Shown here piece after piece: positions 57,730 through 64,000 of a DNA stretch of 64,000 bases. Positions within the stretch are counted from its first letter, which is position 1; every line of letters begins with the position of its first letter. Location: assembly GCA_965248535.1 (NCBI GenBank), contig CBDFJR010000002.1:160001-224000 (forward strand), written 5' to 3'. The notes below the pieces were generated by a model. That model made no database searches, was not told the DNA's origin, and was given only the letters and a program-made list of their open reading frames with translations. Source of the stretch: Phormidesmis sp. GTDB lineage: Bacteria; Cyanobacteriota; Cyanobacteriia; Leptolyngbyales; Leptolyngbyaceae. The translations under genes and the position numbers were made by a program.

Positions 57730-58362
57730 ATGAACATCGTAGAACTATTTCAAAAAGGCGGCGTAACGATGATTCCGTTATTGCTGCTCTCGATCTTGGC
57801 GTTGAGTGCAATTATTGAGCGATCGTGGTTTTGGTTTAACGTTCTTAATAAAGAAAAAGAGACCGTCACCCGGATTCTTGACACCTCTCGCAAAGATTGG
57901 GAGATGGCAGGCGAGATTGCTCGGCAAGCCTATGATCAGCCGATCAGCAGATTTCTCTACGCCGCTCTACGCCTTTCAAAGCCCGACCCTGAGTCGTTTC
58001 GTTTGGCGCTAGAGTCATCGGCTGATGAAGAAATTGTGTCTATGCGCCGAGGTGACAAAATCTTAGAAGCCGTGATTGCGCTGGCTCCTTTATTGGGCCT
58101 ACTGGGAACGGTGATTGGGTTAATCACATCACTACGATCGATTCGCATTGGCGATATCGGCACTGCCTCGACTTCAGGCGTGACAACGGGCATTGGTGAA
58201 GCGCTCATTAGCACGGCAACGGGTCTAATCGTCGCTGTTTTTAGCGTCGCCTTCTACCGCATTTTTCAAGCCCTAGTTTTCAATCAAGCCAAACTCTTTC
58301 GCAGAGCAGGCAACGAGCTAGAACTGCTCTATAGACAAAACTGGCAAGACAGCAACCGCTAG
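57730..58362 (+). CDS. exbB: MotA/TolQ/ExbB proton channel protein
   Basis: [25 protein letters not shown]. Confidence 0.9.
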
Positions 58363-58431
58363 AATATTTTGGCGGTTGCCATCCCAGATAAGCGCTCTGA
58401 CTAGCTTCACCCTTCACCCTTTACGCTGCTC

Positions 58432-59031
58432 ATGAAGATTAACCTCGACTCTCCCCAAGATGAGGCCCAGATTCAAATTATTCCTTTGATCGATGTGATC
58501 TTCTGCATTCTGACCTTCTTCATATTGGCAGCTTTGCAGTTAACCCGTCGAGAAGGCATTAATTTAGATTTGCCTAAAGCCAGCACAGGCACCCCTCAAA
58601 CTCAGGAAATGTTGGTGGTCAATGTTGACTCTACCGGGCTGACTTCTATTAAGAATCAACCCGTCGATCGGGTTCAGCTTTATCAAATTCTGCAAACCTA
58701 TCACCAGCAAAACCCCCAAGGGCTGCTTGTCTTGAGTGCCTCTCAAACCTCTTTCTATAATGATGTCATTCAGGTGCTAGATGTCTTACGGGCGGTGGGC
58801 GGCGATCGGGTTGCCCTTGAGACCAGTCCTCAAGCCAGCCCCTTGCCTAACCAGAATCCAGCGCTTCCTGGTCAGGCTCCTCTCACCCCAGGGTTAACGA
58901 CTCCTGCCCCGACGACGATCGATCCCCTTAGTCCCCAACCCTCTCTCAATCCGGTTTCGCCCGTCAACCCCACTCCCGTTTCTCCTCAACCGTCTGCCCC
59001 AGTCCCAAATTCCACAATTCCGCCTCAATAG
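58432..59031 (+). CDS. exbD: ExbD/TolR family protein with Pro-rich tail
   Basis: IIPLIDVIFCILTFF, LPKA. Confidence 0.9.
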   Translation: MKINLDSPQDEAQIQIIPLIDVIFCILTFFILAALQLTRREGINLDLPKASTGTPQTQEMLVVNVDSTGLTSIKNQPVDRVQLYQILQTYHQQNPQGLLVLSASQTSFYNDVIQVLDVLRAVGGDRVALETSPQASPLPNQNPALPGQAPLTPGLTTPAPTTIDPLSPQPSLNPVSPVNPTPVSPQPSAPVPNSTIPPQ

Positions 59032-59088: not shown

Positions 59089-60285
59089 TTAATGGCGACT
59101 GTTGCGGATAGGAGTCCCGCAGGGATAGGTAGCCACTGGCTGCTTGGCTGCCCCGACTGATATCGGCTCCGATCCCAGATGAGAAGGCTGCTGTTTAGCG
59201 GCTTCATAATCGGCTTTTAGCTTTGCCAGCAGTTGATCACGGCGATCGTATAACCGCTTTAGAGGGCGAGGCTCACACTGGTTGATCACATAAGCCGTCA
59301 AAATGGGCAGCGCGATCGTGCTGTCGGTGTAGCAAACGACCGTGTTGGGCAACTCTTCGGGATCAACCTTGCCCCAGCTAACGGCTTCGTTGGGGGTTGC
59401 TCCCGACAAACCGCCCGTATCAGGACGAGCATCCGTGACCTGAATGAAGTAATCGTGCCCTCGCTCTTCTAACCCCAGAACTTCGTGCAGTTGTGGTTGA
59501 GTTTGCAGCAAAAAGTTTTTAGGACTGCCGCCGCCAATGATCAGCGCAGCGCTCTTGCCTTCTACACCGGGGAGTTCAGACTCGCGGGCAGAATACACGA
59601 TCGCGGCAGTTTCATTCACATCTAGCATCGGGTCAATGACCAGCTTAGAGCCTTCTAGCGCCATCGCTGCCACATTCATGCCGATCGAGCTATCTCCCGG
59701 CGAAGACGTGTAGATAGGAACGCCACACTCATAAGCAGTTGACAGAAGAGAAGGGTGCTTTACGCCCAGTTGCCGCTCGACTTCAGACACATAGCGACCT
59801 AAGAGATAGTGAAACTCAGCCGTACCCATGCGCTTTTGAAACGGCTCTGCTTTCAAAATTTGCCGAATGAAGGCATCCGTTCCCAGCAGCACATCATAGT
59901 CAAAAATGATGTCATAAATGCGAATGCGACCCTCTTGCCGCAGTTTCACGTCATCCAAAAACGGGCTGCTGGCGTAGAGATCTAGCCCTAGCCCATAGTG
60001 CATATCGTGGTAAAGGTTAGCGCCCGTGCTGATGATCCAATCAACGAACCCGTTTCGCATCAAGGGGGCGAGCACAGAAACTCCTAACCCTGCTGGGGTC
60101 ATGGCACCTGACAGGCTGAGTCCGACGGTGACACCCTCTTTCATCACCTCACGACTGAGAAGGTGACAGATCTCCCGCAGCCGAGCAGAGTTATAGGCTG
60201 TAAAGTAACCGTCAATCAGATCAACAACGCTGATCTCGGCGGGCATGGGGGAGGGTGTGATCTTTTGACTGAGAAGTTTGGACAT
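59089..60285 (-). CDS. speY: Deoxyhypusine synthase-like homospermidine biosynthesis protein
   Basis: [43 protein letters not shown]. Confidence 0.9.
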
Positions 60286-60540
60286 TCTTTTACTCCAAGA
60301 GAGTTGAGAGGCATAAAGTGAGGGCTAAACAGTGAGGAACAACCCGACACCGGACTGAAATTTTTAGGAAGTCGCCAAAATGCTTTCAAAAATGAAACTG
60401 CACACTTAGAGCGATTCTGAGCAGTAGCCAAGCGAAATCCGCAGAAATTGAAAGATTCGCAAAACCGATTCCAAGCTCATGCTGTGCCACTTGATTATGA
60501 GCAGCAGAGCGCTTTAGCCATTAACTTAAATAATTCCCCT

Positions 60541-60577
60541 AAAAGAGAACCTGACCGATCCAGTTCGGGTCAGGGTT
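60541..60577 (-). terminator. Intrinsic terminator in the speY upstream region
   Basis: Minus strand CCTGACC-CGAACTGGATC-GGTCAGG then TTCTCTTTT. Confidence 0.65.
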
Positions 60578-60641
60578 GAGAGCAGCCATGCTTTTGGATG
60601 CTAGAGTCAACCAAAGACGCGAACCTTGAGTTACAGATCGG

Positions 60642-60719
60642 TCAGTTCATACTGGGCGCTTCGCAGCGATCGACCCACGACAGTGCAGGGTCAGATTGCC
60701 GCTTCCGCTTCAACTTCAT
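60642..60719 (-). CDS. Putative leader peptide (uORF) MKLKRKRQSDPALSWVDRCEAPSMN
   Basis: ATG 60719 to TGA 60642; the stop codon lies inside a segment complementary to the terminator 3' arm. Confidence 0.5.
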   Translation of the reverse strand: MKLKRKRQSDPALSWVDRCEAPSMN

Positions 60720-60948
60720 TTCGAGATACCACAAAGGTCGCCAAGGGTATCCAGTCAAAGAGAAAGATTTCAATGTTCTTTACGCAACCCTTTAGACACA
60801 GACGCTCCAATCCTATCATCTATTTTTGAAGATGATGATCATCCAAATGACTGAGACCCGTCAATCACCTATAAAGTGAGGTCTCTCTGTTGGTAGGCTA
60901 AGAGCAGTCAGCGTGCGACGTTTATTCTCCATATTCTTTTGGTATGTC

Positions 60949-61617
60949 ATGACTCTTGACTCTCAACTTCCCGTTAACTCAGATTTGCCCCCTGCTGATC
61001 TCACAGGCGCACTGTCACCAGAAGCAGATCAGCATCGCAGAAAGATGCAACGACGCAAAGAGGTGCAAGATCAGCGTCTGGCAAACATGACTGCCGAAAA
61101 GGGGCTGATCATCGTTCACACAGGAAATGGCAAAGGCAAAACCACGGCGGCTCTAGGAATGGTGCTGCGATCGCTGGGTCACGGCTATAGAGTTGCGATC
61201 GTTCAGTTCATCAAGGGCGCATGGGAGCCTGCTGAGAAAGCAGCATTTGAGCACTGGGGCGACCAGCTTGAGTTTCACGCCCTAGGAGAAGGCTTTACCT
61301 GGGAGACTCAAGATCGCGATCGCGACATTCTCAAAGCGACTCAGGCATGGGAGACGGCGCTGACATTTATCAAAAACCCCGACTTTAAGCTGGTGCTGCT
61401 AGACGAGATCAACATTGCCCTGAAGCTGGGTTATCTGTCTATCGACACCGTAATGGCTGGATTATCAGAAAAGACAGAAGACTCCCACATCATATTGACG
61501 GGTCGAGGAGCGCTTCCAGCCTTAATCGAGCAAGCAGATCTAGTCACAGAAATGACATTGGTCAAACATCCGTTTAGAGAACAGGGTGTCAAGGCACAGC
61601 CGGGAATCGAGTTTTAG
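60949..61617 (+). CDS. cobO: Cob(I)yrinic acid a,c-diamide adenosyltransferase
   Basis: GNGKGKTTAALG, QFIKG, LDEI, TGR, KHPF..G..AQPGIEF. Confidence 0.95.
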   Translation: MTLDSQLPVNSDLPPADLTGALSPEADQHRRKMQRRKEVQDQRLANMTAEKGLIIVHTGNGKGKTTAALGMVLRSLGHGYRVAIVQFIKGAWEPAEKAAFEHWGDQLEFHALGEGFTWETQDRDRDILKATQAWETALTFIKNPDFKLVLLDEINIALKLGYLSIDTVMAGLSEKTEDSHIILTGRGALPALIEQADLVTEMTLVKHPFREQGVKAQPGIEF

Positions 61618-61909: not shown

Positions 61910-64000
61910 ATGCCGCCTACCGACAACAATTCCTTTGCTACAGCGACCCCAATCACTAACCTGATTGGAACCCCTTCTCTGTCAGGGTCACTCAACGCAG
62001 GGGATCAAACCGATTTTTATCAATTCACCCTTAACGGCAGCAGCAGCACCAGCATTACGCTGACCGATCTCACAGGTAATGCTCGTCTCCGTCTTTTCAA
62101 CAGCGCAAAATCTGAGATTACCCCAAGCACGACAAACAACTCCAAACAGCTTTCAGAAGCTCTCTCGGTCACCCTGGCTCCTGGAACCTATTACATCCAA
62201 ACAGATTTAGACCCTAACGACGCTAACGTGAGTGAGGCTAGCTATAAGCTAAACCTGTCGGTCAGCACTACTGCAACGCTCAATAATTTGGTTTGGCGCA
62301 ACAAAGTAGATGGCGGTTTTTCGGTGGTGCAGACAGATGGCAAAGTTGTGCAATCTAGCGACCCAATCAAGCTGGGCACTACCACCATCAACCTTTCGAC
62401 CGATTGGCAAAGTCAGTTTGGTGACTTGAATGGGGACGGCGAAGACGACATTTTGTGGCGAAACCAAAAAGACGGCACGATCGCCTATTGGATTATGCAG
62501 GGCGGAGCCATTGTGCAAAGCGCCACTTCTTCCTATAAAGTGCCTGCCAGTTGGCAAGCAACCCTGGCAGATTTTAATAACGACGATCGGGCTGATATCT
62601 TCTGGCGTAATAAACAAACGGGTGAAACAGCAGTTTGGCTCACTAACAGCACAGGTTTGGGGTTTAGCAGTGCGGCCCCACTATCCCCTGGGGTTCCTAG
62701 TGGTTGGGACCCAACTCTAGGCGACTTTAATGGTAAAGATGGGAAAAAAGACATTCTTTGGCGTAACAGTCAGACTGGAGAAGTGGCGATCTGGTTGATG
62801 GATGGCACCCGAATTGCCCCCGGAGGCGCAGCACCGCTTTCAAACGTTCCGGGCAATTGGAAGCCTCAGGTGGGTGACTTTAACAAAGATGGAAAAACTG
62901 ACATCTTATGGCGTAACACCCAGAGCGGAGAAGTTGCCATTTGGCTAATCAACGGCAATCAGATCGCCTCTGGAGGAGCGGCACCGCTTCAGAGCGTTCC
63001 GATCGAATGGACGGCTCAAGTGGGTGACTTTGACGGCAACAAAGGAGACGACATTCTTTGGCGCAATAATCAGACTGGGCAGCTTGCTGTCTGGTTGATG
63101 GACGGGACTCAAATTGCTGCTAACGGAGCCGCCGTACGTTGCCCTATAGCGTCCCCACTAGGTTTAAGATCGAGCGCCTGGCCGATTTTAACAACGATGG
63201 CAAAACTGACATTTTTTGGCGCGATCCAGCATCGGGTGAAGTTGCCATTTGGTTGATGAATGGCACAAGCATTTTAGAGGCAACGTCTCTGCCTCAGCGC
63301 TCTAGCAATGACCAATTTGATGGCATTGAGCAACGACGGTTTAAGGCTACGACCCAAAGCATCGGGGGCAAGACAGAGCTGGCTGCCTTTAATATTGGCA
63401 ACCTAAACACGGCTGGGGTCTATGCCGACTCAATCAGCTCTGATGTGCCTGATTACTTCAAATTCAATTTTGCTTTCAGGTCTACGCTGGTTTTATCGGC
63501 GAGTGATTTAACGGGGCAGCCTCTCAACTCGATCGGTCTGCAAGTTTATAAAGCAGGCGCTAACGGTGCCTCATCAACTCTGGTGTCAGACTATGCGACA
63601 CAAATTCTGGAGCCTGGAGACTATTACATCAAAGTCTCTAGCAATCTCGACAATATCAACTATCGGTTAAATGTTGAAGGCAAGCCACAAGTTACAGAAC
63701 TCGTTGGCAACACGTTCACCGGCCCTTCTCAAGTTCTCTTGACCGCAGGCGCTAGTGACACTGATAACCCCGCTACTACGATATCGATTAACTACAGTGT
63801 TAAGAATGCTGGAACGCTCGCTGCTCCCAATGTCAAGGTTTCTTTCTATCTTTCAAGAGATCAGACTTTCAGCCTAGCGGGTGCGGTGCCAGATTTCAAA
63901 GTTGCGGTTGACCAGGTTTTTGACCTTTCACCCAATCAGTCTAACGCCTCAACGCCGCTAACGTTGACTCTGCCTGCCTGGAAAGATAACTTCTGGACAG
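61910..64000 (+). CDS. Large surface protein: PPC-like domain, FG-GAP repeats, second PPC-like domain, CARDB-like domain; frameshift near 63135; runs off window
   Basis: GDFNxDGKxDILWRN repeats continue in a shifted frame (LADFNNDGKTDIFWRD), which stays open to 64000. Confidence 0.8.

Follow-up and report, generated by a model that had tools for sequence, protein, structure and literature searches.

A conserved translated leader upstream of speY in cyanobacteria looks like an undescribed ribosome-sensing switch for polyamine production

Introduction

How do cyanobacteria control the synthesis of homospermidine, a polyamine needed for normal diazotrophic growth of Anabaena (as cited in a passage of PMC13625781)? 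In the literature searched, nothing was found in print on this control, and a survey of 2016 reported no reliable data on attenuation in cyanobacteria (PMC4833913). The question is raised here by the minus strand of a 64,000-nt stretch of DNA from Phormidesmis sp. (the window), in which a preliminary description had proposed a leader-peptide attenuator ahead of speY, consisting of a -10-like sequence, a hairpin, a short upstream reading frame (uORF), a terminator and an antiterminator. All of these elements were found on that strand at their coordinates. The gene presumed to be controlled by the leader is the following:

59089..60285, minus strand: speY, deoxyhypusine-synthase-like homospermidine biosynthesis protein (NCBIfam NF001980)

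Its product reaches 583.8 bits against NF001980 (cut-off 450). The region upstream of it looks like an undescribed ribosome-sensing switch for polyamine production.

The leader reading frame and its peptide

Of 29 speY upstream regions taken from other genomes, 27 share two conserved segments, corresponding to 60776-60619 and 60567-60521; the two regions without them had less than 270 nt of upstream sequence. Judged from these alignments, the conservation of the leader is far more than chance. It begins with a promoter element and a reading frame:

60810..60818, minus strand: extended -10 TGnTAnnnT (TGATAGGAT) of the leader transcript, from the alignment of 27 sequences
60642..60773, minus strand: leader ORF (MKSFSLTGYPWRPLWYLEMKLKRKRQSDPALSWVDRCEAPSMN), with a TTG start at 60773, 43 codons and a UGA stop at 60644-60642

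In the alignment of 27 sequences, the extended -10 has four invariant bases, T3, T6, A7 and T11, with G4 conserved at 90% or more, so that what had been noticed as a -10-like sequence near 60810-60818 is an invariant element. Of 90 distinct upstream regions, 88 contain the pattern, which ends 20-47 nt before the TTG. The alignment of speY upstream regions, which the preliminary description had proposed as a check, also showed that the uORF is conserved: the frame is kept at 41 or 43 codons with a TGA stop in all 27 loci. Across 107 SpeY-linked loci, the TTG start stands at profile column 1 in 105, and the stop codon is TGA in 97 and TAG in 10. Variability at the three codon positions is 0.107, 0.091 and 0.327 in the 27-locus alignment, that is, the third position is three times as variable as the first two. 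The synonymous to non-synonymous ratio of the sense frame is 1.39, compared with at most 0.73 in the five other frames, and amino-acid identity is 78% against 68% in the best other frame. By this evolutionary signature, the leader ORF is a translated one in the 107 SpeY-linked loci.

The peptide has 11 invariant columns, among them one Cys and three acidic residues; the conserved residues include W33, D35, C37, E38 and P40. Conservation is concentrated in the C-terminal stretch of approximately 29 residues, about the length that fits the ribosomal exit tunnel, and we would read the peptide as an arrest (sensor) peptide. Its sole basic run, K-R-K-R at codons 22-25, contains two conserved Arg codons and lies 54-60 nt (18-20 codons) before the helix P1 described below.

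These data bear on the literal form of the earlier model, in which a uORF of 25 codons starts at ATG 60719 and the ribosome, by stalling at the Lys/Arg run or by reading through the UGA to a second one within the terminator arm, selects between a terminator at 60577-60541 and an antiterminator, with charged tRNA(Arg) as one of the possible signals. Every element of this model exists in the sequence, and the conserved Arg codons suit it, arginine being a precursor of the pathway; still, we regard it as very improbable. The translated leader ORF before speY stands, but not its 25 codons from the ATG, as this position is CTG in two and GTG in one of the 27 loci and the 18 codons preceding it evolve as protein. 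The basic run lies farther from P1 than a ribosome's footprint reaches, too far away for the direct action ascribed to it. An attenuator of the trp type, which counts codons, was rejected on the same distance and on the conservation of the 29 C-terminal residues throughout, since codon counting needs no conservation of a whole peptide.

The peptide was present in 131 of 301 sampled cyanobacterial genomes, and the gene downstream of every inspected peptide locus is either speY or a second deoxyhypusine-synthase-like paralog (NF002699). speY follows on the same strand in 107 of 107 leader loci; a search with the peptide only gave 80 loci, all of them with a same-strand speY 225-1094 nt past the stop. 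Of 145 sampled genomes with SpeY, the leader was undetected in 49. In other cyanobacteria a related peptide, with its own P1, P2 and P3, precedes the NF002699 paralog, and in some class-2 loci the gap between ORF and gene is only 62-75 nt. For these short spacers, the idea that the ORF end masks the ribosome-binding site was considered, and near-identical sequences, folded singly, gave two competing outcomes. The genome of the window contains one match to the peptide and no second copy.

The databases and texts searched gave no match to this leader. Rfam, searched with 59900-61300, returned nothing overlapping the leader (60528-60818) at E up to 10 and four weak matches elsewhere; the gathering score was unreached across the window and in the leaders of five other loci. 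The peptide as a query matched no Pfam family at E up to 10 and gave no usable match in the ESM Atlas. In a collection of 5.8 billion sequences nine matching proteins were found, unnamed or "hypothetical", the ORF being almost never called as a gene. In the openly available full-text literature, no description of an attenuator, a leader or a uORF was found for speY or any deoxyhypusine-synthase-like gene in cyanobacteria. The preliminary description, which had known of no described attenuator of this kind for cyanobacterial speY, is borne out on this point by the Rfam and literature searches.

Conserved RNA helices at the end of the reading frame

The RNA of the leader is predicted to form four helices, P0, P1 (with an extension, P1x), P2 and P3, whose positions are given below:

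60724..60752, minus strand: P0, a hairpin inside the leader ORF (GGAUACC 60752-60746 with GGUAUCU 60730-60724)
60636..60648, minus strand: 5' arms of P1 (UGACCGAUC, 60644-60636) and P1x (GAAC, 60648-60645)
60619..60625, minus strand: 5' arm of P2 (GGUUCGC), from covariation and RNAalifold
60562..60568, minus strand: 3' arm of P2, from covariation and RNAalifold
60547..60560, minus strand: 3' arms of P1 (GAUCGGUCA, 60560-60552) and P1x (GUUC, 60550-60547), with a bulged G
60528..60549, minus strand: P3 hairpin (UUCUC 60549-60545 with GGGAA 60538-60534) and U-rich run (60533-60528)

Two of these had been seen before from the single sequence. The GATACC/GGTATC hairpin is P0, and the pairing of GAACUGACCGAUC (60648-60636) with GAUCGGUCAGGUUC (60560-60547), proposed as an antiterminator, is real and corresponds to the conserved, covarying helix P1. 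The minimum-energy fold of 60530-60830 (-96 kcal/mol, z = -2.06) uses the same pairing. P1 and P2 close a hairpin of roughly 100 nt; between them, on the 5' side, lies an internal loop, CUGUAAC, the bases of which are invariant or nearly so. The 5' arm of P1 opens with the stop codon. Codon 44, UGA in 97 loci, is the start of P1 in 107 of 107 loci; in the 10 loci with a TAG stop it is a sense codon, CGA where read. The complement to the nine bases from codon 44 is present in every scored peptide-bearing locus, and P1x reaches 3 bp or more in 51 of 89 distinct loci. The ORF end overlaps P1, and the leader is strictly linked to speY.

Pairing is retained in 98.4% of cells for P1, with changes on both sides in five of nine pairs (e.g., UA in 16 and CG in 10 sequences), in 91.5% for P2 (four of seven pairs, CG:14 vs UA:9), in 94.2% for P0 (two of seven) and in 84.6% for P3 (five of five). 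Pooled, 93.2% of cells are paired, compared with 20-52% after shifting the partners by a few columns, although the percentage paired is inflated by deriving the counted structure from one of the aligned sequences. Pairs with changes on both sides number 16, against 7.1 in shuffles, none of 500 of which reached 16. RNAalifold independently predicted P0, P1 and P2, and the stems P1 and P2 covary in the alignment of upstream regions; the presence of G-U pairs assigns the structure to the sense RNA. P1 and P2 are, accordingly, supported by covariation, and P3 more weakly. In P0, selection at the RNA level is inseparable from selection on the protein, because both arms encode conserved residues. 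Another hairpin within the ORF, GACCC/GGGUC, was rejected, as it is lost across genera. The pattern of the P1 arm has one exact match in the genome of the window, and its 21 one-mismatch matches, compared with 8 for the control, are chance-like.

P3 is a short, weak hairpin, usually with two G-C pairs, whose stem is 4 bp or longer in 84 of 89 loci; tails containing it have a mean energy of -4.3 kcal/mol and a mean z of -1.4.

Competing pairings and termination signals

The 3' arm of P1x overlaps the 5' arm of P3, and three columns are common to both helices, each of which covaries. This fits the earlier idea that the place of the ribosome at the end of the ORF can decide which structure forms, since the helix that bears the stop codon competes with the downstream hairpin and its U-rich run. 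In the 57 of 90 loci where four or more consecutive T follow P1, the nine bases next to P1 on its 3' side had, in the unblocked fold, a mean of 4.25 nt paired to the ORF end. Their pairing within P3 rose from 1.16 nt in the free fold to 3.38 nt with the ORF end blocked, and the fold of the window shifts toward P3 in the same way. The overlap of P1x and P3 is found in only 39 of 89 loci and P1x of at least 3 bp in 51 of 89, so direct competition is not a universal mechanism.

The alternative partner of the P1 3' arm in the window is the hairpin that had been described as an intrinsic terminator:

60541..60577, minus strand: local, species-specific hairpin CUGACCCGA...UCGGUCAG followed by GUUCUCUUUU

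The hairpin and its UCUUUU are indeed there, but a comparable one was found in only one of 91 loci, its 5' arm is unconserved, and a simple terminator scan flagged none on the minus strand of the window. In the predicted folds of the window it appears solely with a blocked P1 5' arm and a transcript end at 60545 or 60541. The behaviour of this hairpin agrees with the 25-codon model discussed above, and its lack of conservation counts against that model. The same can be said of read-through. The second in-frame UGA (60572-60570) exists, yet the 23-codon frame leading to it is not conserved: among 81 distinct loci, the extension past the stop is 2-69 codons in the 0 frame and 5-494 codons in the +1 frame, and the -1 frame closes after 3 codons in 61. 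A programmed frameshift or read-through at the UGA was, for this reason, rejected.

Cyanobacteria are without Rho, as stated in a passage of PMC12360218, so Rho-based mechanisms are inapplicable and any termination must be intrinsic. P3 would fail the usual criteria for a terminator. At least four U within 8 nt past P3 are found in only 35 of 89 loci, many loci have A/U-rich sequence there rather than a clean U tract, and in the Laspinema/Oscillatoria group an A-rich spacer separates the hairpin from the U run.

These features leave room for the opposite logic, in which P1-P2 together with P3 and the U-rich run would be a repressive element, that is, a compound terminator or a target of RNase E, RNase III or Rae1, and arrest at codon 43/44 would prevent P1 and turn speY on, with agmatine or arginine as the inducer. 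In the 38 of 89 loci with P1x shorter than 3 bp, P3 lies 0-3 nt past P1, and the two helices could coexist and stack; the weakness of P3 by itself and the lack of a clean U tract in many loci point in the same direction. Stalling would then induce, by analogy with TnaC and SpeFL, and to our knowledge the known bacterial nascent-peptide metabolite sensors are inducers. Moreover, Rae1, a ribosome-dependent endonuclease cutting within short ORFs, is conserved in cyanobacteria according to a passage of a preprint (bioRxiv 10.1101/2023.02.16.528812). We nonetheless consider this logic unlikely, if the most serious of the alternatives. Where P1x is present, it covaries and excludes P3; P3 appears in the constraint folds only once the ORF end is blocked; and blocking the 5' arm in the window yields a better terminator-like hairpin followed by UCUUUU.

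The region between the leader and speY

Between the leader and speY, the minus strand contains CATAAT at 60499-60494 and a promoter-like site at 60389-60360, the latter immediately preceding a block that is conserved in the genus; a motif conserved across genera lies 29 nt ahead of the speY ATG. There may be a second promoter of speY's own. Pairing of the leader 5' UTR (GCGUAAAG) with the motif before speY (CUUUAUGC) amounts to 8 bp in the window, and it was dropped for showing no covariation in other genera. The spacer is bridged by contigs from RNA libraries of relatives, one of them 1300 nt long (X4) and others covering the joints (X2 and X3), although contigs cannot prove a single RNA. The contig depth over 60614-60687 is 5-10 times that over speY (X1 and X3); this was discounted as evidence because the most conserved stretch piles up contigs of many organisms. 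Contig ends near 60520-60536 are unreadable as RNA ends.

The sites ahead of speY raise the possibility that the ORF is a small-protein gene in its own right, served by a separate promoter and by P1-P2-P3 and the U run as its terminator. The peptide would then act in trans, e.g., on the deoxyhypusine-synthase-like enzyme or on polyamine transport, as regulator or partner, and a promoter of its own would drive speY. The conservation of at least 29 residues, including the Cys and the three acidic ones, the hairpin and U-rich run after the ORF, and the long and variable distance to speY would all be expected of such a gene. A mere terminator, however, does not explain why the stop codon or codon 44 should provide the first base of P1 in every one of the 107 loci, nor why the non-coding arm and the loop following it are conserved like the ORF. 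The same-strand synteny, extending to the second paralog, and the gap of only 62-75 nt in some class-2 loci also speak against an independent gene, as does the near absence of the ORF from gene calls. Finally, co-expression of speY and speB produced homospermidine, and the passages of PMC13625781 that describe it do not mention the peptide. We find this alternative improbable. The co-expression result also counters the notion of the peptide as a substrate of the deoxyhypusine-synthase-like enzyme, which was rejected in view of there being no Lys invariant across both leader classes.

A model of control by ribosome position

It is rather probable that the conserved, translated leader in region 60818-60528 exerts control over speY in cis, via the ribosome position at the ORF end. 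Against this stand the weakness of P3, the limited occurrence of P1x and of its overlap with P3, the 49 SpeY genomes in which the leader was undetected, and the promoter-like site at 60389-60360. The best reading is a nascent-peptide and ribosome-occupancy attenuator, in which we infer stalling itself, the direction of control, the effector, and termination or RNA processing as the output. In this attenuator, transcription would start just past the extended -10. A ribosome held with codon 43 in its P site would cover the P1 5' arm and block P1 and P1x. The freed downstream strand could then fold P3, followed by the U-rich run, or, in this species, also the local hairpin 60577-60541 followed by UCUUUU, and transcription would end, or the RNA would be processed, ahead of speY. 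If the ribosome departs fast, P1/P1x would form and capture the P3 5' arm, allowing transcription into speY. The signal is likely a pathway metabolite that makes the ribosome stay longer, be it homospermidine, the product, or agmatine/arginine.

A further step, which we put forward tentatively and with slightly less than even confidence, is that the leader is an ancient cyanobacterial metabolite sensor. The peptide, with its invariant W, D, C, E and P, would bind a molecule of the polyamine pathway in the exit tunnel (homospermidine, agmatine or a bis-guanidino intermediate are the candidates), hold the ribosome at codon 43/44 and flip the RNA switch. Such a leader would be the first attenuator dependent on the ribosome to be established in a Rho-less phylum. 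Being common to two paralogous deoxyhypusine-synthase-like enzymes, such a sensor would predate their split or have been recruited twice.

If this is so, a leader with the distribution given above would be a phylum-wide regulatory device and possibly a new nascent-peptide sensor of a small molecule, of which we know of few (TnaC and SpeFL). Such a sensor could serve cyanobacterial engineering as a natural polyamine-responsive switch. The proposal is directly testable, as the element measures approximately 290 nt, the conserved residues and the arms of the helices are defined, and the covarying pairs suggest the compensatory changes.

Comparison with known systems

The trp, his and leu attenuators share with the speY leader a leader ORF, alternative helices and a hairpin with a U run before a biosynthetic gene. 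They need tandem cognate codons over the switch strand and their peptides are unconserved, whereas in the speY leader the whole peptide is conserved and the Arg codons stand 18-20 codons before the helix. The favoured logic would resemble that of the AMD1 MAGDIS uORF, the plant SAMDC uORF and the fungal arginine attenuator peptide, in which a metabolite prolongs the ribosome's stay and lowers a biosynthetic gene. Most mRNAs of the polyamine pathway contain uORFs, according to a passage of PMC2811004. The eukaryotic uORFs, which have no homology to the speY leader, work through scanning and re-initiation in translation and not through co-transcriptional RNA folding.

Among bacterial leaders, TnaC of the E. 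coli tryptophanase operon is similar in being a short ORF with a conserved nascent peptide, a UGA stop and a regulatory RNA site that starts at or next to the stop. In both, a conserved Trp lies approximately 10-12 residues before the C-terminus (W33 of 43 in the speY leader). Trp-dependent arrest of TnaC inhibits RF2 at its UGA (passage of PMC8450073). TnaC hides a Rho site; in the speY leader, in a phylum without Rho, the occluded element would instead be an arm of a covarying helix. SpeFL (orf34, before speF in Enterobacteria) is likewise a leader peptide ahead of a gene for polyamine synthesis, and its nascent chain captures ornithine while the ribosome stalls on the stop codon (passage of PMC12360218). 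The peptide and the phylum are different, as is the enzyme, which is ornithine decarboxylase in the case of SpeFL and a deoxyhypusine-synthase homolog in that of speY. The output also differs, being Rho antitermination for SpeFL and, as proposed here, the intrinsic structures P1/P1x versus P3 for the speY leader.

A parallel in RNA layout is found in the attenuators of ermC, msrD (leader MsrDL, described in a passage of PMC10314930) and vmlR. Their leaders form mutually exclusive helices, the first strand of which is covered when a ribosome stalls on the leader ORF; this alters a downstream hairpin with its U tract or a ribosome-binding site, and stalling is proposed to act likewise on the hairpin in the speY leader. 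The resistance leaders are short and sense drugs in the exit tunnel, and stalling turns the gene on. The speY leader, in contrast, has 43 residues, is deeply conserved and precedes a metabolic gene, and its three-strand layout predicts that stalling favours the downstream hairpin.

Leader ORF and its peptide

Comparative sequence evidence indicates that the upstream open reading frame (uORF) of speY is real, translated and longer than the 25 codons of the preliminary description.

Features of the locus
60818-60810, minus strand: -10-like element TGATAGGAT
60752-60746 with 60730-60724, minus strand: GGATACC/GGTATCT hairpin
ATG 60719 to UGA 60644-60642, minus strand: ATG opening 25 codons to UGA
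60577-60541, minus strand: local hairpin followed by UCUUUU
60285-59089, minus strand: speY, 583.8 bits against NCBIfam NF001980 'homospermidine biosynthesis protein' (cut-off 450)
from 60946, opposite direction to speY: cob(I)yrinic acid a,c-diamide adenosyltransferase gene

The adenosyltransferase gene points away from speY, hence the leader lies in a divergent intergenic space of ~650 nt. Past that gene, long ORFs with repeated 'DILWRN...G...W' units occupy 61910-63999 (plus strand), and downstream of speY two paired genes, ExbB/TolQ-like and ExbD/TolR-like, are encoded on the other strand (57730-59031, plus).

A SpeY query matched in 37 of 41 related genomes and 30 loci were fetched; with L029 left out, its gene being interrupted at a contig end, 29 upstream regions were compared. 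Window positions 60776-60619 and 60567-60521 are present in 27 of these, from several families of the class, at 72-87% nucleotide identity; in the other two (L013 and L023) the upstream sequence is just 268 and 192 nt. The ORF starts at a conserved TTG (60773) and ends with TGA, in frame in 27/27; its length is 43 codons at 23 of the loci and 41 at the other four. The ATG of the preliminary description is codon 19 of this longer ORF and is replaced by CTG in two loci and GTG in one. Column variability at codon positions 1, 2 and 3 is 0.107, 0.091 and 0.327, and 0.17, 0.12 and 0.30 over the 17 codons preceding the ATG. Counted across every pair of sequences, codon differences in the sense frame are synonymous in 4734 cases and non-synonymous in 3398, a ratio of 1.39 at 78% amino-acid identity. 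Among the five other frames, the top scorer (0.73, 68%) is the antisense frame sharing the sense wobble positions. The leader is also overlapped by two antisense ORFs, 65 and 67 codons long (60598-60829, plus strand). One antisense frame is open in 24/27 loci; it scores below the sense frame (0.73 vs 1.39) and is regarded as a shadow of the sense ORF. The window encodes the peptide MKSFSLTGYPWRPLWYLEMKLKRKRQSDPALSWVDRCEAPSMN, and the start, W15, L17, L21, D28, P29, S32, D35, C37, E38 and P40 are invariant across 23 peptides.

The -10-like element proved to be an extended -10 (TGnTAnnnT). Of 90 distinct upstream regions, 88 contain it, and its end lies 20-47 nt, mostly 33-39 nt, ahead of the TTG. 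Nothing as conserved was found directly before speY. A promoter-like site (TTGAAA, 18 nt, AAAAAT; 60389-60360, minus) does lie ahead of the gene, and a hairpin conserved at genus level (CAGUCCG...CGGGUUG, 60357-60340, minus) opens a conserved 75-nt block ahead of speY; together they may mark an additional promoter or the point at which a processed 5' UTR ends. The TTTATGC motif (60317-60311, minus), 29 nt ahead of the speY ATG, recurs in different genera, being conserved at 20 of the 25 loci aligned. Its ATG (60314-60312) starts an out-of-frame ORF, 32 codons in the window, overlapping the speY start, and could belong to a second small uORF or to the translation-initiation region. Public RNA runs with near-identical sequence are metatranscriptomes stored as contigs. 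Leader and speY are both represented in contigs from relatives (88-99% alike), and the variable spacer is bridged by one 1300-nt contig (set X4) and by joints in sets X2 and X3, a weak hint that the two are co-transcribed.

Covarying helices at the end of the ORF

Helices of the leader, all on the minus strand (27-sequence alignment for P0, P1, P2 and P3; the structure was taken from one of the aligned sequences, which favours the percentages paired)
60752-60746 with 60730-60724: P0, in the ORF; paired 94.2%, both-side changes at 2/7 pairs, conserved residues encoded by both arms
60644-60636 UGACCGAUC (nine bases, stop codon first) with 60560-60552 GAUCGGUCA: P1; 98.4%, 5/9 pairs, e.g. UA:16, CG:10
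60648-60645 GAAC with 60550-60547 GUUC: P1x, four-pair extension of P1 past a one-base bulge; covaries, AU:14, GU:6, GC:3 at one pair
60625-60619 GGUUCGC with 60568-60562 CCGAACU: P2, inside P1; 91.5%, 4/7 pairs, CG:14, UA:9
60549-60545 with 60538-60534, UUCUC/GGGAA: P3, small hairpin 3' of P1; 84.6%, 5/5 pairs

The stretch separating P1 from P2 comprises a hairpin that varies and a one-sided loop, CUGUAAC, that is conserved. Over the whole structure, 16 doubly changed pairs were observed, a number matched in none of 500 shuffles, and sliding the partners by 1-3 columns lowers pairing to 20-52%. RNAalifold, supplied with no prior structure, recovered P0, P1 and P2 (24 pairs, 11 with compensatory changes). 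The long-range pairing that the preliminary description took for an antiterminator also appears when 60530-60830 is folded to minimum energy (-96 kcal/mol, z = -2.06 vs shuffles). The complement to the nine bases from codon 44 is present at every peptide-bearing locus scored, the weakest being L030 (14/18).

The preliminary description is partly borne out here: its GATACC/GGTATC hairpin is P0, its 'antiterminator' pairing is P1/P1x, and the alignment of speY upstream regions that it had proposed shows both the conserved uORF and stem covariation. Its terminator (60577-60541) fared less well; the local hairpin and UCUUUU exist and form in the blocked fold described below, but the 5' arm is not conserved and a simple terminator scan of the window returned no minus-strand terminator. 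Readthrough to a second UGA found no support, as the extension may be as short as 2 or as long as 69 codons among 81 distinct loci and shifted frames are no better, and a direct role of the Lys/Arg run is disfavoured by its position 54-60 nt ahead of P1.

Proposed switch

The alignments show a translated ORF, with its final sense codon and stop adjoining a covarying helix, and two elements, P1x and P3, that are mutually exclusive, since P1x occupies three columns of the P3 5' arm. From this anatomy and known footprint sizes, a ribosome whose P site contains codon 43 would cover ~12-15 nt downstream, exactly the P1 5' arm and not P2. This state was mimicked, as a thermodynamic cartoon of a kinetic process, by forcing the covered stretch single-stranded in the 57 of 90 loci where four or more consecutive T occur 10-50 nt past P1. 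In the free fold, the nine bases 3' of P1 pair with the ORF end (mean 4.25 nt), and their downstream pairing as P3 amounts to 1.16 nt free vs 3.38 nt blocked. For the window, the blocked fold of a transcript ending at 60545 or 60541 gives the local hairpin, then GUUCUCUUUU, and that of a longer transcript gives P3.

Because the blocked folds yield P3 or the local hairpin, the favoured model is that a ribosome held at the ORF end would allow a downstream hairpin and U run to form, lowering speY; were the effector the end product, speY would be under feedback repression. Caution is needed, as P3 has little stability (averages over 85 tails of -4.3 kcal/mol and z = -1.4), at least four U follow it within 8 nt in just 35/89 loci, and P1x reaches at least 3 bp in just 51/89. 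A rival reading is a switch of the opposite logic, or an RNase-based output.

Distribution and a second leader class

A peptide-alignment scan with one genome per species gave 129 confirmed relatives. Among the best 80 of the 129, every taxon-named one is cyanobacterial (Phormidesmis priestleyi, the closest, Leptolyngbya, Stenomitos, Myxacorys, Laspinema, Hormoscilla, Thermosynechococcaceae and others), and a same-strand downstream SpeY match was found in 80/80, five running off contig ends. In the resulting 107 leaders (27 + 80), TTG occupies profile column 1 in 105, the stop is TGA in 97 and TAG in ten, and the length is 43 codons in 86 loci, 41 in 11 and 47 in ten. At the ten TAG loci (L062, L065, L068, L070, L072-L076, L079; Laspinema/Oscillatoria group) codon 44 is sense, CGA where read, rather than UGA, and the frame extends four codons across the P1 arm to TAG, reading on as VRSAC or VRSTC. 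Their P3 sequence is wholly different (GGGUU...ACCC), with ACAAAA between P3 and the U run.

Of 301 genomes sampled evenly from the class, 131 contain the peptide and 145 have SpeY above the family cut-off. The leader is present in ~96 and absent in 49 of the 145, by joined family counts rather than a per-genome join (checked by handle for families f1, f7, f9 and f18) and over related, hence not independent, genomes. The 49 fall in f4, f15, f22, f30, part of f11, one f1 genus and others. The peptide was sought in 12 upstream regions of SpeY genomes lacking the leader (L131-L142; genomes G012, G038, G045, G063, G076, G101, G112, G116, G139, G182, G214, G309) and none was found (best E-value 0.9); several of these loci seem to have a further ORF near speY. 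The window's own genome holds a single leader copy.

The remaining ~33 peptide matches (f5, f20), with second copies in two f18 genomes, form class 2, a related leader before a paralog of speY; G086 and G263 carry both leader-gene pairs. At the eight class-2 loci inspected (L111, L113-L115, L118, L119, L124, L128), the gene 3' of the leader has just 31-33% identity to SpeY, and three genes tested are NF002699 '1,9-bis(guanidino)-5-aza-nonane synthase' (583-593 bits, cut-off 500). The peptide, usually 2-6 residues longer and ending in TAA or TAG, shares with class 1 the core W.L..[KR]L..[KR]R...P.[LI].W.[DE].CE[AG]PS (also given as ...RR.SDP.LSW.D.CE[AG]PS). P1 and P2 are retained in the longer-spacer leaders read (e.g., L111, L124, L128), as is a P3-like CUUCUC/GAGAAG hairpin in L111 and L128; L113 and L114 are without the CGAUCG arm. 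In small f20 genomes (L115, L147, L148) the ORF lies just 62-75 nt from its gene, and a translational version of the switch is possible there. At these loci the last ORF codons CCUAGUCC are able to pair with GGACUAGG, adjoining the Shine-Dalgarno sequence, and a CUUCCU stretch with AGGAGG.

Comparison with known systems

The leader belongs to no described family among those tested. The Rfam check suggested earlier gave no match to the leader up to E = 10 (59900-61300; four weak matches elsewhere in that stretch), the peptide has no Pfam match, and a collection of 5.8 billion protein sequences holds nine matching proteins, unnamed or 'hypothetical'. Searches of freely available full texts found no published description of the element. 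The available text of a 2026 SpeY biochemistry paper lacks the terms leader, uORF, attenuat- and riboswitch (PMC13625781), and a 2016 survey, in its passage on the subject, reports no reliable attenuation data for cyanobacteria (PMC4833913).

By analogy, the leader before speY is proposed to work in the manner of the nascent-peptide leaders TnaC and SpeFL and of the ribosome-mediated attenuators of resistance genes. Its conserved span of ~29 residues, with a Trp ~10 residues from the end, resembles arrest peptides. TnaC and SpeFL depend on Rho, whereas cyanobacteria are described, in a passage of PMC12360218, as having no Rho. The logic favoured for the speY leader would be the same as that of eukaryotic polyamine and arginine uORFs.
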